From the NCBI GenBank assembly GCA_050945875.1, contig JBMNTT010000009.1, positions 4,285 through 68,284 on the forward strand: 64,000 bases of DNA. The letters run 5' to 3'. The translations under genes and the position numbers were made by a program. Below are positions 6,083-56,195 of the stretch, one piece after another (within the stretch, counting starts at the first letter, position 1; each line of letters starts with the position of its first letter). The notes under the pieces are model-generated. The model had not been told where the DNA came from, searched no databases, and was given only the letters and a program-made list of their open reading frames with translations. The DNA comes from Christensenellales bacterium. GTDB taxonomy: Bacteria; Bacillota; Clostridia; Christensenellales; JBMNTT01.

Positions 6083-6802
6083 TCACGCCATCGCCATCAG
6101 CGCGCGCAGGGCCCGCTCGTACCGGCCGATCAGCCCATCGGCATGGCCGCCCTTGTTCCAGACCATCCGCACCCAGCCCGGCTGGGCCAGTTGGCTGGCC
6201 AGCAGGTCCGCCATGGCCTGGGCGTCCTCCCCCACATGGGCCATAACCGGGTTGCGGGTGCGGGGCTCCTCCCGCCCCAGGGAGAGATATACCCGCGCGT
6301 CCAACCGGCGTGGCTGGTGAGTTCGGGCATAATCCATCCAGCCCTCAAACCACAAGGAGCCGGACAGGCAGCCGACGCCCCCGAAAGCGTCGGTGGCATA
6401 CAGGGTGGATAGCGCTGCCAGCCCTGCCAGGGAGTAGCCCACCAGGGTGCGATCCCCCGCCGCCAGGCCAAAGCGCGCCTCGGCCTCGGGCAGCACCGAT
6501 CCGAGCAACCAGGCCAGGGTCTTCGGATACCCGCCGGTAAAGACGCCGGTGCCCGGCAGGGCCGGGGCGGGCCAGGGCGAGTAATCGTCCCACCAGTCGG
6601 TCCCCGGCACGCTCACCAGCGCGAAAGGCTGCACCGAGACGCCAAAATCCTTCTCCAGCATGCCCATCACCTGGGCCAGCAGCGGTCCCTCCCCGCCAAA
6701 CACATACACCGCCGGGCAAGGCGCCGACCGCAGAGCCCTGGGCGGCAGATACACCCATCCCTCCCGCCCGGCCAGGGTCTGCCGGGTCAGTTGGCCGCGC
6801 AC
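6083..6802 (-). CDS. alpha/beta-hydrolase esterase family protein
   Basis: 239 aa with nucleophile elbow GYSLAG and overall resemblance to the putative-esterase (enterochelin-esterase-like) family. GTG start 4 nt after the upstream stop. Confidence 0.65.
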   Translation of the reverse strand: MRGQLTRQTLAGREGWVYLPPRALRSAPCPAVYVFGGEGPLLAQVMGMLEKDFGVSVQPFALVSVPGTDWWDDYSPWPAPALPGTGVFTGGYPKTLAWLLGSVLPEAEARFGLAAGDRTLVGYSLAGLAALSTLYATDAFGGVGCLSGSLWFEGWMDYARTHQPRRLDARVYLSLGREEPRTRNPVMAHVGEDAQAMADLLASQLAQPGWVRMVWNKGGHADGLIGRYERALRALMAMA

Positions 6803-33374: not shown

Positions 33375-33569
33375 CTAGATAACCCCTCTTCCTTTTTGAT
33401 CCGGCGCAATACCGCACCGTTCTTGATTATAAAGAAACGCGCGAAAAAAAGCAATCACCTCTACCGATAGCCGTCCAGTTCGCTCGGGTCTTGTCAGCAG
33501 TCCCGCCGGAGGTCGTCGCGCACCGACCCTTTGCGCGGGAACCCGCCCCGCGCGGGCAGCGATCGGGCT

Positions 33570-34895: not shown

Positions 34896-34908
34896 GTTCC
34901 ATCTCCCC

Positions 34909-37455: not shown

Positions 37456-37663
37456 CGATCAAATCACCTCGTATCCATGATGTGGCGACGGGAAGAACTG
37501 GAGACGCCCGATGCCCTGTCATCCCCATATCCGAAACCCAACCCAAGTCCAGCGCGATGGGATCGCCATACCCTCTGTCAGCGCGGCGCAGCGCTTGTCC
37601 ACCTCGACGATGGCGGCGGAAACGGTTGGGCGGGCGGCGGCGTTCAGCACGGCAATCCGATCT

Positions 37664-40600
37664 TTAGGGGTGCTGACCGCCCCTGCTGGTGGCTTTATAC
37701 AGCTCGTCGAAGAGGTTCTCCACATCGATGGGTTTTGAGATGAAGCCGTTCATCCCGGCCTGTATGGCGGCGTCGACATCCTCCTTGAAGGTGTTGGCGG
37801 TCATGGCGATGATCGGAATGGTCCGGGCGTCCGGTCGCTTTAGGGCCCGAATGGCGATGGTCGCATCCAGGCCGTTCATCACGGGCATCTGGATGTCCAT
37901 GAGGATGACCTGGAAATCATTCGGGGCGCTATTGGCAAACAGCTCCGCCGCCAGCTTGCCGTTTTCCGCCCGCCGGACTGCCGCGCCTTGCATCCGCAGC
38001 AGCTCCATGGTGATCTCAGCGTTCAGGTCGTTGTCCTCCGCCAGCAGGATGGACACCCCGGCCAGTGTCCGTCGGCCAAGGGGCATCTCCACCGTCGGCT
38101 CGGACAAACGCCCCTTGGGCAGGGTGACGGTGAAATAGAAGACGCTCCCCTTGCCCCGCTCACTCCTGAGCAGCAGCTCGCCACCCATGAGTCGGACGAT
38201 GCTCCGGCTGATGGCCAGGCCCAGCCCGGTGCCTTGGCTCTTGGCGCTGTTGGAACCCACCTGCTCGAAGCTCATGAAAATGCGCTCCCGGTCCTCCGGG
38301 GAGATGCCAATGCCGCTGTCCTCCACCCGCACGGTAAAGGTCCCCTTTGACTCCGTCTGTTCACCGCCCATGAGGGACAGGCGCACCGTGCCGCCCTCCG
38401 GGGTGAACTTGAAGGCGTTGGAGAGCAGGTTCAGGATCACCTGACGCAGGCGGATGTTATCCCCCACATAAACCTGATCGCGCTGATCGCTCTCCACCAG
38501 GAACTGGAGCCCGCGCCGCTGCGCGTCGGTGGCCAGCATGCTCTCGATGTCGCACAGCAGCACGTCGAGGGAGAACGCGGCCTGCTCCAGCTCCATCCGA
38601 CCGCTCTCGATGCGGCTCATATCCAGGATGTCGTTGATCAGGCTGAGCAGATAGTGGGAGGAGGATTTGAGTTTGGCCAGATTGCTCAGCGCCTTCTGGG
38701 GCAGATCGGGCATCTGCTCTGTCAGGTCCGCCAGGCCCACAATGGCGTTCATGGGGGTACGGATCTCATGGCTCATGCGGGAGAGGAAGGTGCTCTTGGC
38801 ACGGTTGGCCTGTTCGGCCAGGGCCAGGGCGTTCTCGAGCTCCTGCTTGTTTTTCCGCTCCTCCCGAAGCATCTCGGTCACATCCGCCTGCAGAACGCAT
38901 ACGGTCCGGCGACTCCGATCGCCCCACATGACGTTGACCTTTTTGTACCGCAGGCCGTCCTGCGTGTGGTATGCGCAGACAAAGTCGTAGCCGCCGGGAT
39001 GCCGCTCGAGCTCATCGAGCAGGGTTTCCAATTTGAGCCGCTCCCGCAGCGCAAGGCACTCCTCCGGGGTACTGCCGTGGGCTCTTGCCACCGACTCGAT
39101 CCGGGTTTCATACGCCTCCACGACAAAGGCGGGCAGGTCCTCCAGCACCGTCCGCCGGGTGTGTACAACCATCCGGTCGGCGCCCACCCCGATAAAGCCG
39201 ATGAGCTCGAAGGTATAGGCCAGCATGTTGAGCAAACGCTGCTGCTCTCGGATGGAGTCCGTCACGTCGATCCGGGTCAAACACACCCGACCCAGGCGCA
39301 TGTCAATGGGGAAAACCGTCATCCGCTTGACCCGAACGCCGCCATCCGCAACGACAGAAAAATCGAAACTGTAAGTTCCGCTGTCCGCCAGCCGCTTTTG
39401 GATGTAGTCCGGCGCTAGATACTGCCGATAGCGCTCCCGATCCTTGGGCACAACCCAATGATCCAGCATGTGGGTCATCCAGTCGCGGTGGCTCCCGCTC
39501 CCCGGAGGCACGCAGCACGCGCTGGCATTTTGCGTGAACACCACAAGGTGGTCATGGATCAGGTCCAGGATCACGATATGATCATACCCGGTGTCAGAGA
39601 GCTGGCGCAACACCTGGTCTGAGATGATCTTCTCCGTGATGTCCGTCACAGTCAGGATGCCGGTGACGTCTCCAGTATCCGGCTCGGCCACCAAATTGAT
39701 CTTGCACTGGGCGTATCGAGGGACGTCCTCGCCGGGAATCTGGATCATAGCGGTGCAAACCCGCTCGGTTTGCTCGTGCGCATACGCCTCCAGCAGCGGC
39801 GCTTTGAGGAGCGTCTGCAAAAACGCTTTCCGATCCTCCGGGTCCACGATCAGCTCGGAGAAGGCGACGAAGAACGCGTCCCGCACCATGCTGAATCCCT
39901 GCGTGCATTTGCTGGCGGTGTAGTCGTTGATCTCCAGGACGATGTTTTTGTTCAGGTTGCAGTGGCCGACGATCAGGGTGTTGGGGTCGGGCGTACGGTA
40001 GTGCTGCAGGAGCATCTGCCGGTACTGCTCACGGATGCGCTCCTGCTCCTCCCGCTCCCGGGTGACATCGCGGAAAAAGATGTACAGCCGCATTTTGTTG
40101 TCCACACTGGGCAGCATGGACAGCGTGTTTTTGACCCAGATGTACCCATCCTGGCCATACCGCAGCCGATAGATGGCCTCAATGTGGCGATCCCCGCGGG
40201 CCATCGCCTCATACATCCGCCGCTGCAGCTGCGGAAGGTCTTCCGGGTGGACGCCGGCCATGGAGTCCTCCCTGTAGAGCGCCCAGGCCTCCTCCAGCGT
40301 CATCCCGGTCATGGCCGCAAAGCCGCTGGAGAGAAATTCTGGCACGAGACGGCCATTTGACCAGCATCCCACCGCCACGCCGCCGGGCAGGCTCTCCACC
40401 AGCGTGTGGAAGTACTGCTCCAGCTGCTCCTTCTCCTTGCGGGTATCCTCCTCCTGCGTCACATCCCGCAGGTATTGGATGTAGGCGGGGATGCCGTTCC
40501 AAACCGTTTCTCGGTAGCGGACGCGGTAGGTCCCGCCATTCCACGCGCAGATCAGCTCGCTATCCTCGCCGGGCGCCTTTTGGGAAAAGTTGCAGCCCGG

Positions 40601-41944
40601 ACAGGGCGCCGCATTCCCATGCAGGGCGGCATAGCACTTGTCTCCGATGCGATAGGTCCCGCCGGGAAAGAGCTGCTTCGTCTCGTGAAAATAGAGCAGC
40701 TCGTAGTTGCTCCGGTCGATGACATAGATGGCGTCGGCCGCCTCGTTGGCCAGCTCCAGATACATACGACTCTCCTCAGACATACCGGTGTAGGAGGCGT
40801 AGAACTTCGCCGATTCGGTGAGCGGGCCGATGCGTCGGCCACTCATATGCACCCAGATCAGGCCGTCGGTCCGGTGATGGGCCCGGAAGGATAGGTTCAG
40901 CAGCGCTCCCGTGCAAAACGCCTGATTGACGGCGCTGCGCACCCGGTCCCAGTCCTCCCGATAGATGATGCGGAAGGGGTCCTGCCGGATGATCTGGGAG
41001 AACGCCTCCCGGGTGTACCCCACCAGGGCGGGCACGCCGTCCGAGATGAAGCCGGGGATGAACGCGCCGTTTTTGACCCGGTAGCTGGCCACACCGCCGG
41101 AAATGGTGTTGACCAGATGGTTCATCTCCTCCTGGGTCTCTTTCAGGTCGGTGATGTTGTGGAACACACAGCGGAACAGCGGCGCGCCATCCTCCTCGCC
41201 GATCTGCTTGGCCTGGATGCGAACCCAGACGACGTGCCCATCCCGGTGCAGCTTGCGAAATTCGCCGGCCACCACCGTGTGCTCCTGGATCGCCCGGTGG
41301 GCCAGTTCTATCAGCATCTCCCGGTCCTGTGGGTAGACAAACAGGGCGGCATCGTTCTGGATCAGCTCCCTGTACTCCGCCACCGTGTAGCCGGTCAACT
41401 CCGGCACGCCATTGGAAAAGAAGACCGTCTCAAACTTGTCCGTCAACTTGTAGATGGCCACGCCGCCGGGGATGGCGTTGACAATGTCCTGCATCTTCTC
41501 GTTGGCGTCGATCAGTTCGCTCTCCAGCAGCCGCTCCCCGGAGACGTCGGTATAAACGCCGTAGAAAACCAGCGACCCATCCGGCTGACGCTGCCAGTTT
41601 CCCTCCAGGCGGATCCAGCGGTATGCGCCAGCCTGGTCATGGAACATGCGAAAGGTGTAGGTCATCTCTCCGCCGTCGCGCATCGCGGCCTTCGCCCGGG
41701 CCATGAACCCGGGCAGGTCGTCCCCGTGCATGCCGATAAAGGTGTCCTGATGCTGGAGCTGCGCGATATGCGCCTGCGAATAACCCAGCACCCGATAAAA
41801 TGCTGGGTTTAAGTAGACCGGGCAAAAGTGCCCATCCATCAGGCGATAAATGGCCAGGCCGCTGGGCAGGCGATCTAGAATTAGCCGCGTCTCGGGGGCG
41901 ATCGCGTCGGCGATAGCGCCGCTTTTTCCGTCCATCCCTGTCAT
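37664..41944 (-). CDS. cytoplasmic multi-PAS hybrid sensor histidine kinase/response regulator (1426 aa)
   Basis: No obvious TM segment. Many tandem PAS/PAC-like modules, H-box [16 protein letters not shown], HATPase (GTGLGLAI), REC ([12 protein letters not shown]). The start overlaps the Hpt stop (ATGA). Confidence 0.9.
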   Translation of the reverse strand: MTGMDGKSGAIADAIAPETRLILDRLPSGLAIYRLMDGHFCPVYLNPAFYRVLGYSQAHIAQLQHQDTFIGMHGDDLPGFMARAKAAMRDGGEMTYTFRMFHDQAGAYRWIRLEGNWQRQPDGSLVFYGVYTDVSGERLLESELIDANEKMQDIVNAIPGGVAIYKLTDKFETVFFSNGVPELTGYTVAEYRELIQNDAALFVYPQDREMLIELAHRAIQEHTVVAGEFRKLHRDGHVVWVRIQAKQIGEEDGAPLFRCVFHNITDLKETQEEMNHLVNTISGGVASYRVKNGAFIPGFISDGVPALVGYTREAFSQIIRQDPFRIIYREDWDRVRSAVNQAFCTGALLNLSFRAHHRTDGLIWVHMSGRRIGPLTESAKFYASYTGMSEESRMYLELANEAADAIYVIDRSNYELLYFHETKQLFPGGTYRIGDKCYAALHGNAAPCPGCNFSQKAPGEDSELICAWNGGTYRVRYRETVWNGIPAYIQYLRDVTQEEDTRKEKEQLEQYFHTLVESLPGGVAVGCWSNGRLVPEFLSSGFAAMTGMTLEEAWALYREDSMAGVHPEDLPQLQRRMYEAMARGDRHIEAIYRLRYGQDGYIWVKNTLSMLPSVDNKMRLYIFFRDVTREREEQERIREQYRQMLLQHYRTPDPNTLIVGHCNLNKNIVLEINDYTASKCTQGFSMVRDAFFVAFSELIVDPEDRKAFLQTLLKAPLLEAYAHEQTERVCTAMIQIPGEDVPRYAQCKINLVAEPDTGDVTGILTVTDITEKIISDQVLRQLSDTGYDHIVILDLIHDHLVVFTQNASACCVPPGSGSHRDWMTHMLDHWVVPKDRERYRQYLAPDYIQKRLADSGTYSFDFSVVADGGVRVKRMTVFPIDMRLGRVCLTRIDVTDSIREQQRLLNMLAYTFELIGFIGVGADRMVVHTRRTVLEDLPAFVVEAYETRIESVARAHGSTPEECLALRERLKLETLLDELERHPGGYDFVCAYHTQDGLRYKKVNVMWGDRSRRTVCVLQADVTEMLREERKNKQELENALALAEQANRAKSTFLSRMSHEIRTPMNAIVGLADLTEQMPDLPQKALSNLAKLKSSSHYLLSLINDILDMSRIESGRMELEQAAFSLDVLLCDIESMLATDAQRRGLQFLVESDQRDQVYVGDNIRLRQVILNLLSNAFKFTPEGGTVRLSLMGGEQTESKGTFTVRVEDSGIGISPEDRERIFMSFEQVGSNSAKSQGTGLGLAISRSIVRLMGGELLLRSERGKGSVFYFTVTLPKGRLSEPTVEMPLGRRTLAGVSILLAEDNDLNAEITMELLRMQGAAVRRAENGKLAAELFANSAPNDFQVILMDIQMPVMNGLDATIAIRALKRPDARTIPIIAMTANTFKEDVDAAIQAGMNGFISKPIDVENLFDELYKATSRGGQHP

Positions 41945-42303
41945 CCCTCCTCAAGCTGCCGCCGCAGCCGCGCAACTTTGTCAAACTCGTCCGCAATGGC
42001 CTGGCTCATGGCGGGATAATCCGCATCGGGGTCCCGTCTGCGCAGCGGCTCCACAATCTGGCAAATTGCAGCATAAAGGGGCGTCAGGCCCAGATTGCCT
42101 GTCACCCCTTTGAGCGTGTGCGCCGCCTGAAAGGCGCCCTCCAAATCCCCAGCGATCAGCGCCGCCTTGAGCTTGCTAAAGCTGTCGTCCTCAAACAGCA
42201 TGGGCAATAATCTGCGATACAGCGCCTCGTTGCCCATAAAGCGACCCATGGTCGCCTCGTAGTCCCCGCCATAAGCCTCAAATCGTTCTCTAAAGTCAGC
42301 CAT
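41941..42303 (-). CDS. Hpt domain phosphotransfer protein
   Basis: 120 aa from the ATG at 42303 (RBS GAGGGGGAG). Phospho-His motif FQAAHTLKGVTGNLGL. Confidence 0.8.
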   Translation of the reverse strand: MADFRERFEAYGGDYEATMGRFMGNEALYRRLLPMLFEDDSFSKLKAALIAGDLEGAFQAAHTLKGVTGNLGLTPLYAAICQIVEPLRRRDPDADYPAMSQAIADEFDKVARLRRQLEEG

Positions 42304-42356
42304 GCCCTCTCCCCCTCTTTCCCATCCGTGAAGGCCTCCCCCGGCCATCAGGGATG

Positions 42357-44945
42357 CTACCCCCGCCAAAGTCTGCAGCCCCGCTTCCGCTCGCGTTTTG
42401 CCTCGTAGAGGGCCTCGTCCGCCCGGCGGAGAATCTCATCGATCTCGTCGCCCTCGTGCCAGAGAGCGACCCCTGCCGAGCAGTATACGGGAATCCGCTC
42501 GCCGCAGCACTCCTGCTCAATGGCGCGGCAGATTTCGTCGCCCTTGTGAACCGCGCTCTGCGCGCAGCCCACGTGCTTGAGGATCACCACGAATTCGTCC
42601 CCGCCAAATCGGGCCAGGATATCGGTATCCCGGGTGCGTTCCCGCAGTCGTCGTGCAAAACCCCTTAACAGCTCATCCCCGGCGGTGTGGCCCATGGCGT
42701 CGTTGATCTTCTTCATGTCGTCCAGGTCGAACATGCAGACCGCCGCGGGCGCGTCCTTATCCCGGAGCATCGCCACGGACGCGTACATCCCCCGGCGGTT
42801 GAGCAGACCGGTGAGATAGTCCTGGTAAGCCGCGTCCTCCAGTCTGCATCCCCGCTCCCACACATCCACATAGCCGACGGCGCGGCGGAACCGATGCCGC
42901 AGGTTTTTGGCGGAGTAGGGTTTGTTGATAAAATCGTCCGCCCCGACCTCCAGCGCTTGCTCCTCCAGCCTCAACCCCCAGGGTGCAGTGGCAATCACCG
43001 GGACGTTCCAGACCGTTCGCTCCCGCTGTAGGTCCTTCAGGGTGTGAAAGCCGTCGGACCCTGGCAGCGTCAGGCTCAGCAGCACGCCGGCGAGCCGGCG
43101 ACCGTACGAGGCGACACATTCGCGCACAGCGGCGGCATGCTCTACCTCCACCACTTCATACGCGTCGCCGAACATTTCCCGCGCCATGGCCCGGTACGCC
43201 GCGTCCTCGTCGGCCACCAGAAGGGCCCTTTTCGGCTGATGCGTCTGCGGATGGTCGCCGTCCTCCTCCACCTCGCCGGTGCGGAACAGCTCCTCAAACT
43301 GGGACATGGGCATGGGCTTAGCAAAGTAAAAGCCTTGCACGTAGGTGCATCCGATTTCCCGCAGGTATTCCAGCTGCTCCCGGGTCTCCACCCCCTCGGC
43401 CACCACGCTCAGCCCCATGGTCATGGCCATATCCATGATAAAGCGGAGGATGCCCCGATCCAGGGGCTTAGCCGTCTCGCTCTGGACGAAGCGCATATCC
43501 AGCTTCAAGATGTCCACCGGCATGCTGTTGAGCATATTCAGGGAGGAGTACCCGCTGCCAAAGTCGTCCATCTCCACCACAAAGCCCAGATCCCGCAGCC
43601 GGCGCACCGTCTCCACGATCTGATGGGGATTCTCCGTGTAGGCGCTCTCGGTGATCTCCAGATGCAGGCGGGACGGGGACAGACCGTACTTGGCAACCAC
43701 GCCGACCAGAATATCGGCGATATCCGCATTATAGATATCCGCCCGGGATACGTTGACCGAAATCGGGATATGAGGATAGCCCTTCTCATCCCAGCGCTTG
43801 AGCATAGCGCAGGATTTCTCCCACACATACTGATCCAGCCGGGTAATAAAACCGTTTTTCTCAAAGAGCGGAATAAAAAGCCCCGGCGACAGGAAGCCAC
43901 GATTGGGGTGATCCCAGCGGACCAGGGCCTCAGCGCCGGAGAGCTTGGAATTTTTGACGGTATATTTCGGCTGGAGATAGACGGCGAACTGATCTTGCTC
44001 CAGCGCGGTCTCCATGCTGTTGGTGATGGCCTGCTCCATCAGCATCTTGCCGCGCAGGGCGTCGTCGTAAAAAGCAACATGCTTGTCAAAATGACCCTTG
44101 ATGCTGTTGACGGCGAAGAACAACCGGTCGCACATCTGCTCGACGTGCACCGATCGGTCCTCGATGGCGTAAACGCCCCATTTCATCAGAATACTCTTGG
44201 AGCCGGAGATTTCGTTGATCCGCGCTTCCAGCGCGGCAAAATATTCCTCCCGGTACTCCTGGCGGCGCTCGATCAGGCAGACAAACTGATCCGCGTTGAA
44301 TCGCCCGCAGATGCCTTGGCTGCCGATCAGCTTGGCGTACAGCTCGCCGATTGCGATCAGCAGGCTGTCCCCGGCGGCCAGGCCGAACACAGCGTTGATC
44401 AGTTTGAAGTTTTCGATATCTGAACAGATCAGGTCATACGCCTTGTCGGGGTTCTGCCGCAGGACCTCCCCGACCCGCTGATAAAAATAGTCCTTGCTGT
44501 AGAACCCCGTCAGCCGATCGTACTTAAACTGGTTAATCATCGCGGCGGTCTCCCGCAGGTTGATGATGCTGGCGACCCGATGCAGAATCACCTGAGGCTT
44601 ATAGGGCTTGGCCACAAAATCGGTGGCGCCCTGAGACAGGGCCGTCACCTCATCCGCTTCGCTGTCGCTCTGGGTGGTGACAATGACGGGGATGGACGCG
44701 TAGGCGGGATTGCCCTTCATGACGGACAAAAAAGTATACCCGTCCATCACGGGCATGATCAGGTCCAGCAGAATCAGGGAGATATCGTCCCGCTCTTTTT
44801 CGAGAACCGCCAACGCCTCCTGGCCGTTTTCCGCCTCCAGAACCTTGTAGCGCGGCGAGAGAATCGCTGTCAGGGTCGCGCGGTTGATGAAATTGTCCTC
44901 CACCACCAGGATCGTCTTTTGACCCACCAATCCTACTTCCCCCAT
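42357..44945 (-). CDS. response regulator with REC - degenerate GGDEF - EAL - pseudo-REC - GGDEF architecture
   Basis: REC1 (ILVVEDN...LILLDLIMPVMDG). GGDEF-like domain with RFNADQF in place of GGDEF. EAL domain (EALVRW, DDFGSGYSS, EGVET). REC2 with Ser at the phospho-Asp position (VLLSLTLPGSDG). Intact RFGGDEFVVIL domain. Confidence 0.9.
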   Translation of the reverse strand: MGEVGLVGQKTILVVEDNFINRATLTAILSPRYKVLEAENGQEALAVLEKERDDISLILLDLIMPVMDGYTFLSVMKGNPAYASIPVIVTTQSDSEADEVTALSQGATDFVAKPYKPQVILHRVASIINLRETAAMINQFKYDRLTGFYSKDYFYQRVGEVLRQNPDKAYDLICSDIENFKLINAVFGLAAGDSLLIAIGELYAKLIGSQGICGRFNADQFVCLIERRQEYREEYFAALEARINEISGSKSILMKWGVYAIEDRSVHVEQMCDRLFFAVNSIKGHFDKHVAFYDDALRGKMLMEQAITNSMETALEQDQFAVYLQPKYTVKNSKLSGAEALVRWDHPNRGFLSPGLFIPLFEKNGFITRLDQYVWEKSCAMLKRWDEKGYPHIPISVNVSRADIYNADIADILVGVVAKYGLSPSRLHLEITESAYTENPHQIVETVRRLRDLGFVVEMDDFGSGYSSLNMLNSMPVDILKLDMRFVQSETAKPLDRGILRFIMDMAMTMGLSVVAEGVETREQLEYLREIGCTYVQGFYFAKPMPMSQFEELFRTGEVEEDGDHPQTHQPKRALLVADEDAAYRAMAREMFGDAYEVVEVEHAAAVRECVASYGRRLAGVLLSLTLPGSDGFHTLKDLQRERTVWNVPVIATAPWGLRLEEQALEVGADDFINKPYSAKNLRHRFRRAVGYVDVWERGCRLEDAAYQDYLTGLLNRRGMYASVAMLRDKDAPAAVCMFDLDDMKKINDAMGHTAGDELLRGFARRLRERTRDTDILARFGGDEFVVILKHVGCAQSAVHKGDEICRAIEQECCGERIPVYCSAGVALWHEGDEIDEILRRADEALYEAKRERKRGCRLWRG

Positions 44946-45020
44946 TCTACATCGCCATATCCAAGGTCGATCGTTGGTTGTCGCTCGGAGTCGATGTCGC
45001 CCATATATACACGTATTTCT

Positions 45021-45049
45021 ATCATAGCATCCTCGCCTATTTCAGGCAA
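45021..45049 (-). promoter_or_regulatory. candidate sigma-A promoter of the signalling operon
   Basis: Minus strand TTGCCT (45044-45049), 17 nt, TATGAT (45021-45026), about 70 nt upstream of the regulator start. Confidence 0.45.
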
Positions 45050-45152
45050 CCTAATTGGTGACTTTTTCTGAAATTTGTCGTTACCGGCAGGCCGCTGCGC
45101 GAGATTTTTCGGCCTTCCGGGAATGTCGCCATGCCAGTTCGCTAAGGCAAAC

Positions 45153-45190
45153 GCGGAGCCAGGCGCGCATACGCCTGGCTCCGCTCTTTT
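45153..45190 (+). terminator. orphan intrinsic-terminator-like hairpin (plus-strand polarity)
   Basis: Perfect 13-bp stem GCGGAGCCAGGCG / CGCCTGGCTCCGC, 6-nt loop, followed by TCTTTT. No plus-strand gene upstream. Confidence 0.5.
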
Positions 45191-45545
45191 GGGCTCCATG
45201 TCGGACCAACCGCCGTCGATTGGAAATTCCCTGTCCGGCTAAGAAGCCTCGCCGCCAAGCTGGGATTCGTGCCAAAAGGAGCGCTTCTGAGCAGAGAAAC
45301 GTTGACAAAAGTAGATACCCGTTCCGGCGCAAGCGCTAAATGAAATCGACAGTGCCGAGCACACTTTTTGGCGGGGACTAATACGGCGCATTTTGCGATA
45401 TAAAAGGGGTTCGGAAATCAAAGCAAAAGGCTGCCATGCACCACCACTCGGAGTCTGGGCGGGAAATCCGGCCCGCCATGGAAAAGCGCCGGAAACAGAA
45501 AAAGCCCGGAAAGCCCACAGATAGCGGGTTTCCCGGACACAAACG

Positions 45546-45603: not shown

Positions 45604-45690
45604 TGGTGCGGGTGGAGGGACTCGAACCCTCACGCCTTTGCAGGCTCGGGATTTTAAGTCCCGTGCGTCTGCCGATTCCGCCACACCCGC
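45604..45690 (-). tRNA. tRNA-Leu (anticodon UAA), CCA encoded
   Basis: Reverse complement GCGGGTGTGGCGGAATCGGCAGACGCACGGGACTTAAAATCCCGAGCCTGCAAAGGCGTGAGGGTTCGAGTCCCTCCACCCGCACCA. 7-bp acceptor stem, anticodon stem CGGGA/TCCCG with loop CT-TAA-AA, long variable arm, T-arm GAGGG-TTCGAGT-CCCTC. Confidence 0.95.
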
Positions 45691-45707: not shown

Positions 45708-45736
45708 ATCATAACACTCAACGATGTTTCTGACAA
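45708..45736 (-). promoter_or_regulatory. candidate promoter for tRNA-Leu
   Basis: Minus strand TTGTCA (45731-45736), 17 nt, TATGAT (45708-45713), about 18 nt before the mature tRNA 5' end. Confidence 0.4.
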
Positions 45737-45813
45737 GACTTTCGTCGCGAGCGCTTCACACGCAACAACAAGGCCGACACGCGCTTGGCATGCCGGCCTT
45801 TGTATAGATAGGA

Positions 45814-48800
45814 TCAAGAGGTTTGCTTGTTGCGCTTTTTCCGGGTCAAAAGCAGCACCAGCAGCGCGATTGCGGCAGCCAGGCAAATACCGCCGGCCAG
45901 CCAGGAAAGGAACGCATCTCCCGTGTGCGGCTGTGGCGTAGTGTCCACCGGCGCGATGCCCTTGATGGGATCGTCGGGGCCAAAGCCTGCCGGATACACT
46001 GGATCGGGCAGCTCGATGACAATCGCGCCCTCCCCATCAGGCATGGGATCATCCGGCGCAGACGGATCGGTCGGTTTGCCATCGGGGGTATATCCCCCGG
46101 CAACCGCCCGGTTGCCGATCCCGCTCTCCAGCGCCTGGGCGTTGATGACCGCCTCAAAGCGGATATGATAGACCTCGCCGCCATAGATATCGCCGATGCA
46201 CACCGTCAGCATGCCGGCGGTCAAGGCGTAGGCATCGCGTTGGGGCTGGATGCTCCTCCCCTGGGGATCGATCACCACCAGGGTGTCCAGGTCCGGGGTC
46301 AGGCCGGCGGGCAGCAGGTCGCGCACCCGCACATCCGCCCACATGGAGCCGTCCAAGCGGTTGCCCACGGCGATGTCGTAGACGATGCGCTGCCCCACCT
46401 CGAGGCGCTCCGCATCCTCGGCAAGCACCGCGCTCTTGTCAACATAGCCATCGGGGCCAAGGGGCTGCACCCCGGGATCGGGATCGCCCGGATCAACGCC
46501 GGGGATCACCGCGTCGCTCCACACATCGGGCAAAGGCACGCCGTCAGCGTCCGTGCCTGAGGCCACCGCGAGGTTTTGGATGCTCACACCCCCTGTGGGC
46601 GAGACCGCCTTCGAGTTGATCACCGCGTCGAACACCAGGGTGTAAGTCTCGCCGCCCCGGATGGTCCCCACCGGTACGGTGAGTTTCCCGGTCTTTTCAT
46701 CGAAGGTATATTCGCCCTCGTCCAAGGGTCTGCCGACCGGTTCCGGCCCATAAAGCGTCAAGCTGTCCGGCAGAAGCGTCAGACTGAGGGGAAGTTGGTC
46801 GCAGAGGACAACCTGATCCCACTGGGAGTCAGGGGTATGGTTCTGCACCGACAAGCTATAGCGCACCGCATCGCCCACAACGTTAGGCCCGTCGCGATGG
46901 GTCAGGTTGAAGGCGGACTTGACCAGCTGGGTATCAATCGGGCGCAGCGGAATCAGGATGATCTGCACATCATGATCGCGGTCCAGGGAGATGAAGCCAG
47001 TCTTGGCATCATCGATCAGCTCATTATGGAGCTCACCATCCACATAAATCCGCGCCACATCGTACCGCGGATCAATCTGCCAGCTCACCAGGGCGTCCGC
47101 CCCGGCGGGATAATGCCGCGTTGGCGTAATACTACCCAGGCCGCCAGAGATCATGGTACTGACCGTAAAGGGCTCAACAGCGTCCGGATCATCGGGGGGA
47201 TTCGGGTTGTCCGGATCGTCGGGGGGATTCGGGTTGTCCGGGTCATCATCGGCGGCGAAGAACACTTCCACATGATGGTTGCGCACGATGTCGACGAAGT
47301 TCATCTGGCCGCTCTGGGCCACGGCATCGCTCTGGAGCAGGCCATCCACATAGACCTTCTCGATATGCCAGCCATCAGCCGGCACCCAGGTGACCACATG
47401 GTCGCTACCCCGAGAGACCGTGGTGCTGGGGGTGATACTGCCCTGACCATGCTGTTCGGTACTGATGAGCAGGATGGTTTGCGGCTTCTGCGGCTCCTCG
47501 GGCGCATCCTTCAGGATGACCACCACATGCTGATTCTTCTGGATATCGGTGAAGGCCACTGAGCCGGTGGCGATCAGATCGTCGCGCATCTGCCCGTTGA
47601 CGATGACCGCCTGCACCTCATAGCCCGCCTGGGTGGACCAGTTGACCAGCTGATCCTCGCCGGGGTAGACGGTGCAGGATGCGGTGATGGTGCCGGGGCC
47701 ACCGTACAGGTCCGTATCCACCCGCAGCAGCTCATCAGGCTCGGGCGGCGGGTTGTGCGTCGTATCCGAGAAGGTTACCGAGACCTGATGGTGATCCTGG
47801 ATGTCCGTGAAATCCACGCCGCCGGCGGTCAACAGGTCCGGACGCTCCACGCCATCCACCTCGACGCGCAGGACGGACTCGCCCGGAGCGGGCTCCCAGG
47901 TGACGCGATGATGATCGCCGCGATGCACGCGCACCGAGTCGCTGATCGTGCCGTTGCCGATTGCCTCGGTATTCACCCGGACGAACTCCTCATCGGTAGC
48001 CGGGGACTGATCGGAGGTGACCACCACAAAGAGCGAGTGATCCTGCTGGATATCTGAGAAGGTATAGCTGCCCGCGGCGAGCAGGTCGTCTCGGGTGACG
48101 CCGTCTATCACAACGCTCTGGACGCGATATCCAGGGTCCACCGACCAGGCGACGGTGCGCTCCTGGCCGCGCAGGATATCCCGCTCCGTCGGGGTGATCG
48201 CACCGGGGCCGCCGGTCAGGGAGGTGACGATATCGAACAGGTCCTCGGCCTTGGGCGCATCGCTGCTCTCAAGGTAGACCTGTATCAGGCAATCCTCGTC
48301 CACGTTGTTGAGCGGCAGCTGGTTCTCCGAAACGGCGACCTCCTGGCGCACACCGCCTTTGGTAAAGACCACCTTGCTAACCCGATAACCCGAGGATGGA
48401 GCCCACTGGATGGTCACGTTGCTGTTGGGCGCAATGACCTGGGAGGGCGTGATGGTACCCGGTCCGTTGACGATCTGGGTGTTGACCAGCAGCTGGTCGA
48501 GGGCGGGCGCTTTATCGTCGCGGAAGAGGACCTCTACCAGGTGGTTCTCCTGGATATTCATGAAAGACTGGATGGTCGGGGCGCTGGTCGTGTCCGTCCG
48601 CACAGAGACAAAGGTTTCTTTTCCGTTGAGCTTAATTCCGCCGGTGTTCTTGCTGTCATTGATAGCCATGATCTCCAGGTCATGGTTGGCATAGTTGAAG
48701 GACTTTCCCCCATTGACGTTCGGCAGAGTTCCCTGGCCACCATTGCCGTGATCATAATAGGGGCGGGTGTTGCCCGGATTGAGCCCCAGGCCACTGGTAC

Positions 48801-50307
48801 TGCCATCCTTGAGGATTTGTCCTGTAAAGAAATGGACGGTGGAGCGCAGAGAGGAATAGATAGACTTATAGGTCGTGACCTTGCTCGTATTGTACTGCAG
48901 CGACTGCTGAGTACCGCCCGCCGCCGAATCAGGATCCTGCCCATCCAGGGAGAAGATCAATTCGCCGGTGGGATTGTCCTTGATGACCAGGCCATCTCCC
49001 TCGATCTTCACGTTCGCCGGCGTCGCCGGCGACACCGAGATACCGCCAAGCTGGAGCTTAACCATGCGCAGGGGCAGGTTGGTATCCTCCTCGACGATGA
49101 TCAGTTTCCAAGAGGCGAAACAGTCGACGAAATTGTTCCAATCCGCAGCAGTATTTCCATTCATCGCGGTGTAGGGAAGGTTGACGGCCGTATAGGTGCC
49201 GTACCCTTGGCCGCGAACCCAAGCCGTCACATCGAAGTAAGCCGAGACACGCGTATTGACATTATCCTGATAGATGGTGCTCGGGTAGAAATGCCGATAC
49301 TCACCCTTGGGGCCGACCATATAAAACCCATACTGGCCCAAGGGCGCGGTCTTGCTCGTAACACTCCCGCCATACTGCGTGAGCGCCACGACCAGATACG
49401 CCTTGGCGATCCCCGATGTGCCGGTGGTCGCGGTCAGGGTTGAGCTGCTGGAGTTGGTATTGGTGGCGTTCTGACCGCCAATGTTGGCCGGCAAGGTGCC
49501 GCAGTTCTTCTCATAAGTCGTGTTGGAATGGTTCGGCACGCCCACCACGTTTGTGTTATTGTACTTACCGCTACAGTTGGTGTTGCCGGCAAAATTGAAG
49601 CGGTAGGGCCCCGTCATCGAGGACTCTATGAGTTTATCTTTGATATAGTTTTGGGTATTTGGCGAGCCGACCGTGGTGATTGTGGCCAGCGTCATCGCCT
49701 GATTAAAGTACTCCGCCAGGGCCACGAGCTTCTCCTGGGCGGCGGGGTCGATGCTCTCGCCCTCGGCCAGCAGGTCCAGGGCGTCGAACACGGCCTGCAT
49801 CTGGTCGTACACCGCCTGCTTATCGCCCCCGAAGTCGGCGCAGGCGATCTGCTCGGCGGTGGGCAGCTCAGCGATCATGGCTTCGATCTGCTCGGCGGTC
49901 ATCGCGCCAATGGGCAGCGCGTCGGCGCTGGGCGTGGGGCTCTGGCTGGCCGTCGCGTCGGCGCTGGGCATGGGGCTCTGGCTGGCCGTCGCGTCCTGCG
50001 AGGAGACGGGCGCGCTCGGCGAGGAGCTGGGCGCGGGCTTATCCGACGGATCCGCGCTGGCGCTGGGCAACGGCGACGCGCTGTTCAGCTCCGACGCCGT
50101 GGGCTGCGCGCTGGCAGAGGCCGAGGGCGGCGATTGCTGGGTGTCTTCGGGCTCGGTGGAGGACGCCGTCTGCGTGGGCAGCGGCGGATCATCTCCATCG
50201 GGCAGCGCTACAACCGGCAGGGTCCAACCGGACACCGCCAGCAGAACGCTCATGAACAACGCTCCGATGCGCAGGCGTGCTCTGGGTCGACGTAACCGTT
50301 TGTCCAT
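45814..50307 (-). CDS. large cell-wall-anchored surface protein: signal peptide, Ser/Pro/Ala-rich linker, unassigned ~450-aa head, six InlB-B-repeat-like modules, two DUF11-like domains, LPXTG-like sorting signal
   Basis: 1497 aa. Signal peptide N-terminus RLRIGALFMSVLLAVSGW. C-terminus TPQPHTGD plus hydrophobic helix plus RKKRNKQTS. See the repeat features for the internal modules. Confidence 0.9.
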   Translation of the reverse strand: MDKRLRRPRARLRIGALFMSVLLAVSGWTLPVVALPDGDDPPLPTQTASSTEPEDTQQSPPSASASAQPTASELNSASPLPSASADPSDKPAPSSSPSAPVSSQDATASQSPMPSADATASQSPTPSADALPIGAMTAEQIEAMIAELPTAEQIACADFGGDKQAVYDQMQAVFDALDLLAEGESIDPAAQEKLVALAEYFNQAMTLATITTVGSPNTQNYIKDKLIESSMTGPYRFNFAGNTNCSGKYNNTNVVGVPNHSNTTYEKNCGTLPANIGGQNATNTNSSSSTLTATTGTSGIAKAYLVVALTQYGGSVTSKTAPLGQYGFYMVGPKGEYRHFYPSTIYQDNVNTRVSAYFDVTAWVRGQGYGTYTAVNLPYTAMNGNTAADWNNFVDCFASWKLIIVEEDTNLPLRMVKLQLGGISVSPATPANVKIEGDGLVIKDNPTGELIFSLDGQDPDSAAGGTQQSLQYNTSKVTTYKSIYSSLRSTVHFFTGQILKDGSTSGLGLNPGNTRPYYDHGNGGQGTLPNVNGGKSFNYANHDLEIMAINDSKNTGGIKLNGKETFVSVRTDTTSAPTIQSFMNIQENHLVEVLFRDDKAPALDQLLVNTQIVNGPGTITPSQVIAPNSNVTIQWAPSSGYRVSKVVFTKGGVRQEVAVSENQLPLNNVDEDCLIQVYLESSDAPKAEDLFDIVTSLTGGPGAITPTERDILRGQERTVAWSVDPGYRVQSVVIDGVTRDDLLAAGSYTFSDIQQDHSLFVVVTSDQSPATDEEFVRVNTEAIGNGTISDSVRVHRGDHHRVTWEPAPGESVLRVEVDGVERPDLLTAGGVDFTDIQDHHQVSVTFSDTTHNPPPEPDELLRVDTDLYGGPGTITASCTVYPGEDQLVNWSTQAGYEVQAVIVNGQMRDDLIATGSVAFTDIQKNQHVVVILKDAPEEPQKPQTILLISTEQHGQGSITPSTTVSRGSDHVVTWVPADGWHIEKVYVDGLLQSDAVAQSGQMNFVDIVRNHHVEVFFAADDDPDNPNPPDDPDNPNPPDDPDAVEPFTVSTMISGGLGSITPTRHYPAGADALVSWQIDPRYDVARIYVDGELHNELIDDAKTGFISLDRDHDVQIILIPLRPIDTQLVKSAFNLTHRDGPNVVGDAVRYSLSVQNHTPDSQWDQVVLCDQLPLSLTLLPDSLTLYGPEPVGRPLDEGEYTFDEKTGKLTVPVGTIRGGETYTLVFDAVINSKAVSPTGGVSIQNLAVASGTDADGVPLPDVWSDAVIPGVDPGDPDPGVQPLGPDGYVDKSAVLAEDAERLEVGQRIVYDIAVGNRLDGSMWADVRVRDLLPAGLTPDLDTLVVIDPQGRSIQPQRDAYALTAGMLTVCIGDIYGGEVYHIRFEAVINAQALESGIGNRAVAGGYTPDGKPTDPSAPDDPMPDGEGAIVIELPDPVYPAGFGPDDPIKGIAPVDTTPQPHTGDAFLSWLAGGICLAAAIALLVLLLTRKKRNKQTS
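46948..48495 (-). repeat. six tandem ~85-90-aa protein modules (divergent InlB B-repeat-like) inside the surface protein gene
   Basis: Each module has G(G)PG(T/A/S)ITP..., then W..(P/D).GY.V..V.VDG, then F.DIQ..H.V.V.F (aa ~605-1120). Confidence 0.7.
47186..47239. repeat. 27-bp tandem duplication in the coding sequence (DDPDNPNPP x2)
   Basis: GGATCATCGGGGGGATTCGGGTTGTCC / GGATCGTCGGGGGGATTCGGGTTGTCC. Confidence 0.85.
49919..49990. repeat. 36-bp tandem duplication in the coding sequence (DATASQSP(M/T)PSA x2)
   Basis: GCGTCGGCGCTGGGC(G/A)TGGGGCTCTGGCTGGCCGTC repeated head to tail. Confidence 0.85.
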
Positions 50308-50416
50308 GATCTCTTCCCCCTACATGATGATGTCTTATCCCCGACAACGCGCCTGCATGCCCCGTTCGTCATGGCGTAGCGGCGCGCTTGCCGGGTAATC
50401 CATGATAATCCCCGTT

Positions 50417-50477
50417 ACACAAAAGCGGTTTGGACCCCTTGAAGCCCTTTTATAGACATTCAAGTGTCCAAACGTGC
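50417..50477 (-). terminator. long imperfect palindrome plus T-tract (terminator of the recombinase gene and/or attenuator in the adhesin leader)
   Basis: Minus strand GCACGTTTGGACACTTGAA-(14 nt)-TTCAAGGGGTCCAAACCGC followed by TTTTGTGT. A second small hairpin AAATTTGTGCC-AAGATTA-GGCACAATTT lies at 50478-50506. Confidence 0.55.
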
Positions 50478-50506
50478 AAATTGTGCCTAATCTTGGCACA
50501 AATTTA

Positions 50507-50535
50507 ATTGTAGCAGATATGGAGAAAATTGTCTA
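50507..50535 (-). promoter_or_regulatory. strong sigma-A-like promoter pointing toward the surface-protein gene
   Basis: Minus strand TAGACA (50530-50535), 17 nt, TACAAT (50507-50512). It begins 6 nt after the recombinase stop codon. Confidence 0.5.
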
Positions 50536-50540
50536 CATAT

Positions 50541-51158
50541 TTACAGATTTTCCCTGTTCTGCGTATTTCCCTCCCGCTCTCGCACCCAGCGAAAGAAAGT
50601 GTTGTGCGTCACCATCAGGCATCTGCCCGCCTCGCGGCCGCTGATTCGGCCGGATTTCCAGGTATCATAGATCTCCGGAAAGTTCTCCGGCGGCTGTTTC
50701 TCGGGCCGGCCAAAGCGTACCCCCCGCAGCTTGGCCGCGGCGATGCCCTCGGCCTGGCGCTTGCGGATGTTCTCCCGCTCAGTCTGGGCCACATAGCTGA
50801 GCAGCTGCAGCACAATGTCGGCAATCAGCGTGCCCGTCAAATCCCGCCCGTTGCGGGTGTCCAGCAGGGGCATATCCAGCACGACGATATCCGCCTGTTT
50901 CTCCTTCGTGATGATGCGCCACTGCTCCAAAATCTCCTCATAGTTGCGGCCCAACCGGTCGATGCTGGCCACGACGAGGATATCCTCCTTGCGCAGCCTG
51001 CGCACCAGGCGGCGGTACTGGGGCCGATTGAAATCCTTTCCGCTGATTTTGTCCACATAGATATTTCGCTCGGGAATCTCCAGCGACGAGAGCGCAATCA
51101 GCTGCCGATCCTCATTTTGATCCCGGGTGCTCACCCGGACATAGCCATAAATCTGCAT
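50541..51158 (-). CDS. serine recombinase (resolvase/invertase family)
   Basis: ATG at 51158 with GGAGGTG RBS. MQIYGYVRVSTRDQNEDRQ catalytic-Ser motif, SIDRLGRN, LDMPLLDT, ERENIRKRQAEGI, C-terminal HTH (GRISGREAGRCLMVTHNTFFRWVRE). 205 aa. Confidence 0.9.
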   Translation of the reverse strand: MQIYGYVRVSTRDQNEDRQLIALSSLEIPERNIYVDKISGKDFNRPQYRRLVRRLRKEDILVVASIDRLGRNYEEILEQWRIITKEKQADIVVLDMPLLDTRNGRDLTGTLIADIVLQLLSYVAQTERENIRKRQAEGIAAAKLRGVRFGRPEKQPPENFPEIYDTWKSGRISGREAGRCLMVTHNTFFRWVREREGNTQNRENL

Positions 51159-51253
51159 ATTTCGACACCTCCATATGCAATATTTTAGCGGTTTGGAGGG
51201 TAAAATTGTGTGGTAATATCTACCAATATTCTGACAATAGATTGGTAGGCGCA

Positions 51254-51292
51254 GCAAAAAAACCGGCTCAGCCCAATCGGGCCGAACCGGTT
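51254..51292 (-). terminator. intrinsic terminator of the ABC exporter gene
   Basis: Minus strand AACCGGTTCGGCCC-GATT-GGGCTGAGCCGGTT followed by TTTTTTT. Confidence 0.7.
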
Positions 51293-51305
51293 TCGAACAC
51301 GCGCG

Positions 51306-53072
51306 TCAGTTTTCCTCGGAGACGAAGAGAAGCTCGCTCTGGCGCTTGGCGGAGCTGGCCTGCACCTGGCTGAGCTTGGCGTAGAGGCCGCCCTGAGCCA
51401 GCAACGCTTCATGTTTGCCCCGCTCGACGATCTCCCCCTCCTTGAGCACCAGAATCTGGTCCGCCCGCATGACCGTGGAGAGGCGATGGGCGATGACGAT
51501 GATGGTGCGCCCGCCGGAGAGCTGCTCGATGGCGTCCTGAATCTCGGCCTCGGTCTCGGTGTCCACGGCGGAGGTCGCCTCGTCCAGGATCAGGATGGGC
51601 GCATCGCGCAGCACCGCCCGTGCGATGGCGATGCGCTGCTTCTGCCCGCCGGACAGGCGCACGCCCCGCTCCCCCACCAGGGTATCGTAGCCCTGGGGCA
51701 TCTGACAGATAAAATCGTGGGCATGGGCAATGCGCGCCGCCTGCTCAATCTGCTCCGCGCTGGCGTGGGCCACGCCGTAACCAATGTTCTCGGCGATGCT
51801 GCCGTTGAACAGAAAGGTATCCTGCAGCACCATGGAAATCTGCCGCCGCAGGGAGGCTACCTTCAGGGTGCGGATATCCTGTCCGTCCAGCAGGACCCGA
51901 CCCTTCTGGGGATCATAGAAACGCTCGATCAGCGAGACGATGGTGCTTTTGCCCACACCGGTGGGTCCGACCAGAGCCAGCATCTGCCCCGGGGCCACCG
52001 AGAAGGAGATGTCCTTGAGCACCGGTTCGGCCTCGTTGTAGTGGAAAGATACGTGTTCGAAGGCCACCGCGCCCCTGGCCCGCTCCAGCGGCTGGGCGTT
52101 CGGCGCATCCTGAATGTCGCTGGTCGCGTCGAGCACCTCGAACACCCGCACCGCGCCGGCGTAGCTCATCTGCACATCCTCCACCAGCCGGGCCAGCACC
52201 GCCAATGGCTGGTAGAACAGGCTCAGGTACATCAAAAAGCCCACGATGTCCGAGATGGGCATCGCGCCCTGCATGGCGAAAAGGCCGCCCACGCCGATGA
52301 CGATCACGGTGCCCAGGCTGGTCAGGAACTCCACGCTGGGATGGAACAGGGCGTTGGCGAAGTTGGCGCGGATGTTGACCCGGGCATACTTCTCGCGGTA
52401 GCCGTCCATCTTGGCGTGCTCCCGCTCCTCCTGGCCGAAGGCCTGGATCTCCTTCATGCCCGAGAGATTATCCTGCATGACGCCGTTGAGGTCGCCGAGC
52501 ACCTCCTGGTTGATGCGAAAGAGTGGAGCCACCTTCTTGGAGAAGAAGCCGCTCACCCACACCACCAGCGGCACGGGCACCAGGGTCAGGATCGCCAGGG
52601 TTGGGTTGATGACAAAGAGCATCACCGCCACGCCCAGGATGATGAGCACATTGCTGATCAGGTCGGGCAGGGCGTGGGCCACCAAAACCTCGATCTGCCG
52701 GGTGTCGTTGATCATCCGGCTCATCAGCTGGCCGGTCTGTTTGTCCTGATAGTACTTCAGCGACAGGCTCTGCAGCTTGTCATAGATGGTCAGGGTCAGC
52801 TCCGGCACAAAACGCCAGGCCGCCAGGTGGCTGATGGACATGCTGATAAACCGGCACACCGCCCGCAGCAGGTACGCCACCACCAGGATCACCACATACC
52901 CGATGAGGATCCCGCTGGAAACCCCGTCGCTCTCCAGCGCGCCAGTGAGCCGACGCACCATCTCCGGCGTCACCAGGTTGAGCAGCGCCGCGCCCACCAG
53001 ACCGACGACGGCGATAGCCAGCGTCCCCCAGTGCTTCCTGGCCATGAGGATCAAACGCTTCGACAGTCCCAT
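51306..53072 (-). CDS. ABC transporter ATP-binding protein/permease (MsbA-like exporter half-transporter)
   Basis: Six-TM ABC_membrane domain followed by Walker A GPTGVGKST, LSGGQKQRIAIARA, ILILDEATSAVD. Confidence 0.9.
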   Translation of the reverse strand: MGLSKRLILMARKHWGTLAIAVVGLVGAALLNLVTPEMVRRLTGALESDGVSSGILIGYVVILVVAYLLRAVCRFISMSISHLAAWRFVPELTLTIYDKLQSLSLKYYQDKQTGQLMSRMINDTRQIEVLVAHALPDLISNVLIILGVAVMLFVINPTLAILTLVPVPLVVWVSGFFSKKVAPLFRINQEVLGDLNGVMQDNLSGMKEIQAFGQEEREHAKMDGYREKYARVNIRANFANALFHPSVEFLTSLGTVIVIGVGGLFAMQGAMPISDIVGFLMYLSLFYQPLAVLARLVEDVQMSYAGAVRVFEVLDATSDIQDAPNAQPLERARGAVAFEHVSFHYNEAEPVLKDISFSVAPGQMLALVGPTGVGKSTIVSLIERFYDPQKGRVLLDGQDIRTLKVASLRRQISMVLQDTFLFNGSIAENIGYGVAHASAEQIEQAARIAHAHDFICQMPQGYDTLVGERGVRLSGGQKQRIAIARAVLRDAPILILDEATSAVDTETEAEIQDAIEQLSGGRTIIVIAHRLSTVMRADQILVLKEGEIVERGKHEALLAQGGLYAKLSQVQASSAKRQSELLFVSEEN

Positions 53073-54830: not shown

Positions 54831-56195
<1,365 letters not shown>

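Follow-up and report, generated by a model that had tools for sequence, protein, structure and literature searches.

We analysed a 64-kb stretch of the genome of a Christensenellales bacterium (contig JBMNTT010000009.1), hereafter called the window. In this stretch, a gene for a 205-aa small serine recombinase lies directly upstream of a gene for a 1497-aa surface protein on the same strand, and a promoter directed at the surface protein gene is found at the 3' end of the recombinase gene. A preliminary description of the locus had proposed a Hin-like phase-variation switch. The features discussed here are summarized in Table 1. As previously noted, the junction of the two genes is an AT-rich patch, with a G+C content of 0.43 at 50400-50599 compared to 0.6-0.7 in the flanks.

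Table 1 Features of the recombinase locus and its surroundings in the window.
Feature	Position	Strand	Basis
tRNA-Leu (TAA)	45604..45690	minus	ARAGORN and Rfam
Surface protein gene, 1497 aa, presumed cargo of the former switch	45814..50307	minus	translation, Pfam, NCBIfam
Predicted 5' leader, about 190 nt, with two strong hairpins	50308..50503	minus	RNA fold
Predicted promoter, ON configuration, aimed at the surface protein gene	50507..50535	minus	consensus scan
Proximal crossover site, 12+2+12 bp	50521..50546	minus	half-site weight matrix, nhmmer
Small serine recombinase gene, 205 aa, Sin-like	50541..51158	minus	Pfam and structure-sequence matches
Recombinase upstream region	51159..51258	minus	alignment with L001; upstream 11-bp copy and conserved block ATTGTCAGAATATTGGTAnATATTACCACACAATT
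Intrinsic terminator of the upstream ABC-transporter gene	51260..51293	minus	inverted repeat, 15-nt arms, 87% complementary, followed by a T run
ABC-transporter gene upstream of the recombinase	51306-53072		

The open reading frame and its Pfam match bore out the identification of the recombinase. The translated protein matched Resolvase (PF00239) at 4.9e-29 over profile positions 1-144 of 145, and the catalytic motif YVRVSTRDQ, with Ser10, places it among the small serine recombinases. Among proteins of solved structure, the top match was Sin/Bin3 (2r0q, 9.5e-26, residues 3-157). The Tn3 and gamma-delta resolvases matched at about 2e-17, with the gamma-delta alignment covering residues 1-194, and the Gin chains were weaker at 1e-15 to 2e-15. 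The recombinase thus resembles Sin and the Tn3 resolvases more than Gin, and its assignment to the Hin/Gin/Cin/Pin subfamily was rejected. The Mpi family (NCBIfam NF009949) was also rejected, as the score was 56.4 bits against a cut-off of 272.

More than 8000 homologues of the recombinase were found across the Clostridia, the best being about 70-77% identical, and these occur as single genes in unrelated housekeeping contexts. The protein is 63-77% identical to those of more than 150 loci, which is within the range of about 63% or more taken for orthologues. As judged from its sequence, it belongs to a large clostridial family of Sin-like small serine recombinases. The closest relative found was the syntenic locus L001, in which the recombinase is 92% identical; besides L001, no relative above 75% identity was detected in scans of metagenomes and GTDB.

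We scored recombination sites with a half-site weight matrix built from 42 proximal outer half-sites, using random 260-nt windows as the background. The top match of the whole 64-kb window, at 13.9 bits, was located at the 3' end of the recombinase gene. On the minus strand this site reads CTGTAAATATGT-AG-ACAATTTTCTCC, with the central AG at 50534-50533, and it overlaps the recombinase stop codon (50541-50543). It was also the only match below E=1 when the window was searched with the family motif by nhmmer, and this search gave nothing beyond it. The site centre is +7 nt from the recombinase stop; in 42 relatives, it is at -27 to +119 nt and the orientation agrees.

The preliminary description regarded TAGACA-17-TACAAT as the only good promoter of the surface protein gene, and a consensus scan of 49800-51800 likewise returned it as the sole promoter-like match. 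It consists of a -35 element TAGACA (50535-50530), a 17-nt spacer, and a -10 element TACAAT (50512-50507). The extended -10 element is TGcTACAAT (50515-50507), and the promoter agrees with the consensus at 10 of 12 positions plus the TG. The -35 hexamer spans the AG of the crossover site. The same architecture, TAGACA-17-TATAAT, is present in the relatives L051, L116, and L130, which are in the ON state. The window thus shows the arrangement that characterizes the family, namely, an AG-centred 26-bp site after the stop codon, a -35 element across its centre, and a -10 element 17 bp inside. The promoter is predicted to be active, with a putative transcriptional start site of the surface protein gene at about 50500.

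In the intact loci of this family, the recombinase gene is followed by an invertible promoter segment of 92-157 bp, and the recombinase itself is encoded outside the segment. Two inverted 26-bp sites bound the segment, each composed of 12-bp half-sites similar to GAAAAAGT on both sides of a central AG; in a subfamily, the centre is GT/AC in place of AG. Across 80 GTDB loci, a conserved motif of about 25 nt was identified after the recombinase stop, GGAAAAnGTAG(A/G)(C/A)..TwTC..TCAG, and TAGACA of the window corresponds to its core. This motif was located 3-60 nt past the stop in 56 of 89 loci, and many loci carried an inverted second copy 100-190 bp further downstream. In 34 of 41 loci, the distal site scored above the 99th percentile of random sequence. 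The two sites of a pair are only moderately alike in the relatives.

The centre-to-centre spacings of the site pairs clustered at about 94, 104, 114, 125, 136, 148, and 156 bp (for example, 5772/5897 in L051 and 1195/1299 in L013). The period is approximately 10.5-10.7 bp, with a Rayleigh R of 0.76-0.78 for loci that are not phylogenetically independent. Spacing by the helical period suggests that the two sites need to be on the same face of the DNA helix. In L002, an inverted repeat at 6612/7089 was considered as a 500-bp inverton and dropped, as a canonical distal site about 94 bp away was preferred.

The preliminary description recommended comparing homologous loci of relatives for a flipped segment, and such segments were observed. 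The 123-bp interiors of L051 (Gemmiger formicilis) and L039 were 84.6% identical when one was reverse-complemented and 58.5% identical in the forward direction. Their downstream flanks agreed at 112 of 120 positions, and the boundaries of the flip were exactly at the AG/CT centres. Among 36 locus pairs with similar interiors, five were flipped relative to each other. In run X36, a contig with a depth of 4.1 joined positions 5772 and 5899 of L051 on opposite strands, and forward contigs had depths of 8-13. The unitigs of X36 broke at 5771/5772 and 5898/5899, which are the predicted AG/CT centres. This is direct evidence that both orientations of L051 coexist in the X36 sample. In run X49, one contig skipped 153 bp of L051 (5742-5896), comprising the proximal site and the whole segment, and represents a natural deletion variant.

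Most AG-type switches carried the sequence xAGACx-17-TATAAT at one of the two sites, and the hexamer spanned the crossover dinucleotide. In L051, L116, and L130, the promoter is at the proximal site and is directed across the segment at the gene downstream (ON). In most assemblies, it is at the distal site and faces the recombinase gene (OFF for the cargo gene). We propose that a Sin-like recombinase encoded immediately upstream of the segment would exchange strands at the AG and thereby split the -35 element as T-AG-ACx, while the -10 element TATAAT would lie 17 bp inside the segment. In the ON state, the promoter at the proximal site would fire through the segment into the downstream gene. 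In the OFF state, the promoter at the distal site would fire back toward the recombinase gene, and the transcript would be antisense to this gene. In the window, the proximal site and promoter are in the ON arrangement in front of the surface protein gene.

A distal site of this family would be expected within the leader stretch 50308..50503. We searched for a CT-centred site 40-300 bp from the proximal site; the best candidate, at -17.3 bits, was equalled or surpassed by 53% of random 260-nt windows. No inverted site in helical phase was found 92-157 bp away, where most relatives carry one. Alignment of the site region gave partners at the chance level only, whether downstream (0-700 nt), upstream (400 nt), or window-wide, and the half-site matrix detected no other credible site in the 64 kb. 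An inverted TAGACA with an AG centre is present at 50453-50458, at a centre-to-centre distance of 79 bp from the proximal site. It was rejected as the distal site, as its outer half ATAAAAGG is unlike a half-site and its spacing is below the family range and out of the 10.5-bp phase.

Contigs of five metagenomes (X1, X3, X7, X17, and X19) all had the orientation of the window, and no strand-change joints were present in these assembled contigs, the depth of which was 2-14x. In X1, a single unbranched contig of 6 kb spanned the region at 13.6x; coverage in the other four came from fragments spanning the proximal site or the leader. At the control locus L051, the minor orientation was detected in comparable contig data (depth 4 beside 8-13).

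Based on the homology of the recombinase, site, and promoter to those of the family, the flipping in relatives, and the lack of a recognizable partner site here, we consider that the window locus is probably a degenerate, ON-configured remnant of a clostridial serine-invertase promoter switch that has retained one site, and that it is most likely locked ON. As the distal site is missing, the pair in the window can no longer invert, and transcription of the surface protein gene is probably constitutive from about 50500. The intact recombinase is subject to purifying selection and thus probably acts in trans on sites elsewhere in the genome. The earlier proposal of a phase-variation switch holds in that the locus contains the conserved unit of a real switch family, which often controls giant surface proteins, but the unit is probably no longer a switch here. 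The giant wall-anchored protein is then probably expressed from a fossilised switch promoter and is not phase-variable.

Several points weigh against a locked state. The promoter activity and the transcriptional start site at the surface protein gene are predictions, and assembled contigs of the above depth leave room for a minor inverted subpopulation. The site model was derived mostly from relatives of lower G+C content, and a diverged distal site could escape detection because the two sites of a genuine pair agree at only about half of their positions. Near the recombinase, the minus strand has three occurrences of the half-site-like word ACAATTT (50478, 50526, and 51203). These words may be non-canonical or weak recombinase-binding sequences, although their recurrence in an AT-rich patch proves nothing. 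The strong purifying selection indicates that the recombinase is doing something, which could be an action at this locus.

The purifying selection on the intact recombinase, the room that the contig data leave for rare variants, the inverted AG-centred TAGACA, and the moderate similarity of genuine site pairs would also fit a switch that is still active, through a cryptic diverged distal site in the leader or a partner outside the 64 kb, so that the surface protein would still be phase-variable. We consider this unlikely. No CT-centred candidate in the leader exceeded the random median, the inverted TAGACA fails both in its outer half and in its spacing, and the window has no other credible site. 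The five metagenomes were also in one orientation, whereas comparable data caught the minor form at the control locus.

The preliminary description had drawn the invertible segment differently. In the geometry of Hin/fljB, a segment of about 0.7 kb (50467-51197) carrying both the recombinase and the outward-facing promoter would invert between TCCAAAC and GGTTTGGA. The motifs are present, and the recombinase and promoter do lie between them. The two copies of the 11-bp direct repeat AGCGGTTTGGA (50424-50434 and 51187-51197) are identical, and a direct match of at least 11 bp between the two intergenic regions has a P value of 0.008 in dinucleotide shuffles. However, the repeat is not a feature of the family: flanking direct repeats were not enriched in 74 homologous loci, 6.8% of which reached p<=0.05, and the window had the lowest value of the 74, as expected of one draw in 74. 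The upstream copy differs at two positions in L001 despite the 92% identity of the recombinases, and the downstream copy varies among metagenomes, three of which have G>A at 50428. The flanking motif AAATTGTG was found at 50478-50485 and 51203-51210 as described; the word CACAATTT has no further occurrence in the window, and both copies resemble half-sites, reading ACAATTT on the minus strand.

The inverted copy TCCAAAC also exists (50467-50473), but the inverted repeat that it forms with GGTTTGGA is at the chance level; an inverted match of at least 7 bp between the two intergenic regions has a P value of 0.87 in the same shuffles, which also applies to a match of 7-8 bp. TCCAAAC is merely the 3' arm of a local hairpin in the leader. 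A scan of 49800-51800 with a generic repeat finder gave nothing meaningful around the recombinase, and no inverted repeats bracketing the recombinase and promoter were seen when the site region was compared with the upstream region (z=0.6). Crossover in the family takes place at other sites, and the segment that inverts is a 92-157 bp cassette located 3' of the recombinase gene, which it does not include. The chance that the Hin-like segment inverts is accordingly slight to the point of being negligible.

As the alternative, the preliminary description regarded the recombinase as a resolvase left over from a decayed transposon or plasmid; in that case, it would be unrelated to the surface protein in function, and an ordinary promoter would adjoin it by accident. 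The resolvases Sin, Tn3, and gamma-delta are indeed the closest solved structures by sequence, and the surface protein gene is an insertion or deletion relative to L001. Collinearity between L001 and the window extends from 59335 to 50577, where it breaks off 36 nt short of the recombinase stop, and resumes at 45721; in the BLAST synteny, L001 8718-8926 aligns opposite 45721-45510 of the window. Thus, the last recombinase codons, the AT-rich patch, and the whole surface protein gene are an insertion or deletion with respect to L001, from which the 1497-aa gene is absent. The tRNA-Leu gene directly follows the recombinase gene in L001 and marks the far edge of this insertion or deletion.

The recombinase genes of the two syntenic loci have a ratio of nonsynonymous to synonymous substitutions (dN/dS) of 0.065 at a dS of 0.59. 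The low dN/dS and the synteny indicate a conserved chromosomal gene rather than a decaying relic. Genes for an ABC transporter, a tRNA, and signalling proteins surround the recombinase, with no transposase or plasmid genes found nearby, and no array of res-like subsites, as in Tn3/Sin-type resolution, was identified at the locus. Further, the members of the family are single genes in housekeeping contexts, and the -35 region is a conserved recombination site of the family, not a generic promoter. A relic resolvase is therefore very improbable. The recombinase gene of L001 (8001-8639) is intact and has a different C-terminal tail, and neither a recombination site nor a promoter follows it. Approximately one-fourth of the family loci are orphans of this type, having a recombinase without a switch, which hints that the enzymes of the family also act in trans.

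The absence of the surface protein gene from L001 and the flanking direct repeats would both be explained if the gene were a cassette inserted or excised by the recombinase between direct sites. The boundary of the insertion or deletion is at the 3' end of the recombinase gene and adjoins the proximal site, the 11-bp repeat has the nominal P value given above, and a weak site-like sequence (4.8 bits, TT centre) is located at the stop codon of the surface protein gene (45811-45836). We regard such a cassette as highly unlikely, as the 11-bp repeat brackets the recombinase and not the surface protein gene, and the family shows no enrichment of such flanking repeats. In addition, the candidate at 45811 has no AG/CT centre and scores within the chance range for 64 kb, and the metagenome contigs contained no deletion joint.

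The 1497-aa protein has a signal peptide and matches Pfam DUF11 (7.5e-09) and NCBIfam RrgB_K2N_iso_D2 (1.7e-10), an isopeptide fimbrial domain. Its C-terminus resembles a sorting signal, with QPHTG, a hydrophobic stretch, and basic residues, and the match to Rumino_NPXTG was weak. A homologue search at E<1e-20 returned only the protein itself. The DUF11 and RrgB-type isopeptide domains and the sorting-like tail fit the cargo repertoire of the family. In the relatives, the cargo includes giant signal-peptide proteins with VWA, BspA-LRR, SLH, Cna_B, SpaA, or DUF7601 domains, pilin-like giant proteins, flagellin, C5 and Eco57I-type methylases, MCP/CheW chemotaxis proteins, and a glycosyltransferase. 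Genes for TnpB/Cas12f-like proteins with a TNB domain are directly downstream of the invertible promoter at L013 (1328-2509) and L023 (6843-8153); an open reading frame of L017 was likened to them by its N-terminal sequence alone. A TnpB/Cas12f-like gene would be an unexpected cargo for a phase-variation switch.

The leader of the surface protein gene (50305-50503) folds at -71.5 kcal/mol, with a z score of -3.76 against shuffled sequence. Its hairpins are at 50478-50505 and 50428-50473 in plus-strand coordinates. The arms of the first hairpin, AAATTTGT and ACAATTT, resemble half-sites and are 13 nt apart. An Rfam search of the leader and its surroundings matched only the tRNA and no riboswitch. 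In the relatives L051 (5903-5989, 54 bits) and L039 (1243-1329, 45 bits), a cyclic di-GMP (c-di-GMP)-I riboswitch (RF01051) follows a few bases past the distal site; inversion and c-di-GMP sensing would thus act in series on one leader. A conserved small open reading frame of 80-98 aa follows the switch in 13 loci (L004 6778-7032, L002 6822-7094, and 11 further loci). It has the motif LLE.LA...GC.YLSDLH...EW.DAV.YITG, gave no Pfam or NCBIfam match, and is absent from the window.

We compared the family with known recombination systems. Hin/hix of Salmonella fljBA and Gin/Cin/Pin share with it a small serine recombinase and 26-bp sites with 12-bp half-sites and a 2-bp core, and in Hin/hix, inversion likewise moves a promoter relative to a gene for a surface structure. 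However, the enzyme of the family is nearer to the Sin/Tn3 resolvases and is encoded outside the segment, the segment is 92-157 bp against about 1-4 kb, and the -35 element is split by the crossover. A Fis/enhancer system is not expected in this phylum, since Firmicutes, to our knowledge, are without Fis. Mpi, the master serine invertase of Bacteroides fragilis, also flips short promoter segments upstream of surface-structure loci, and the solitary chromosomal recombinase of the window could act in trans in a similar manner. The family differs from Mpi in the site sequence and in that its inverton is attached to the 3' end of the recombinase gene.

Short promoter invertons of about 150-300 bp near surface or motility genes are also known from fimS/FimB-FimE of E. 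coli and the RecV switches of Clostridioides difficile (cwpV, flgB, and cmrRST). As in C. difficile flgB, an inverton is combined with a c-di-GMP riboswitch in some relatives, and the OFF orientation, which reads back toward the recombinase gene, recalls the orientational control of fimE. The fimS and RecV systems use tyrosine recombinases and other repeat structures, whereas the family uses a serine recombinase. Sin of Tn552 (Bin3) and staphylococcal plasmids is the nearest solved relative by sequence, but its substrates are res sites in direct repeat, which it resolves with the help of an accessory site II and HU. The sites of the family are inverted, are located 3' of the gene, and flip a promoter. 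The family functions like the promoter switches of the Hin/hix, Mpi, or fimS type and is not a transposon resolution system.

No description of this family was found in the literature searched, including inverton catalogues and work on small serine recombinases. We tentatively propose that the window may represent a widespread, apparently undescribed class of clostridial phase-variation switches, in which the single-site copy would be a natural locked-ON derivative whose recombinase serves other switches. The proposed class would be characterized by a Sin-like invertase with one of the two sites at its gene's 3' end, a -35 element divided by the crossover, spacing quantised at about 10.5 bp, and antisense transcription in the OFF state. 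Its cargo would comprise giant adhesins, flagellin, DNA methylases, and TnpB-like genes, sometimes with a c-di-GMP riboswitch in series. Large inverton catalogues very likely contain individual members; therefore, the novelty is limited to the architecture, namely, the Sin-like enzyme, the 3'-end site, the split -35 element, and the helical phasing.

The site, crossover point, and promoter logic are now defined for a family present in hundreds of gut and environmental Clostridia, including Gemmiger, Faecalibacterium, Christensenella, and Lachnospiraceae. With rules this concrete, whether a switch is ON or OFF can be predicted from its sequence alone, and metagenomes can be searched for adhesins, flagellins, and methylases that are phase-variable. 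Two mechanistic features, the spacing in helical phase and the splitting of the -35 element, lend themselves to direct testing, and the natural one-site copies allow locked and switchable alleles to be contrasted.

The ABC-transporter gene upstream of the recombinase ends in its own terminator, indicating that the recombinase gene is a separate transcription unit. The recombinase upstream region is possibly its own promoter or operator; a consensus scan gave no promoter-like match in this region. The block at 51204-51237, ATTGTCAGAATATTGGTAnATATTACCACACAAT, is conserved with L001 (7917-7955), has inverted ends, ATTGT and ACAAT, and could be an autoregulatory operator. A second insertion or deletion relative to L001, of 12 kb (33423-45510), adjoins the tRNA-Leu gene. 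This block carries genes for a solute-binding protein, two hybrid histidine kinases of 848 and 1426 aa, and a response-regulator-EAL-GGDEF protein. On the other side of the recombinase, 54831-56126 encodes a protein of 431 aa that combines collagen triple-helix repeats with a CBM_5_12 module, and its repeats produced many off-diagonal BLAST matches to L001.

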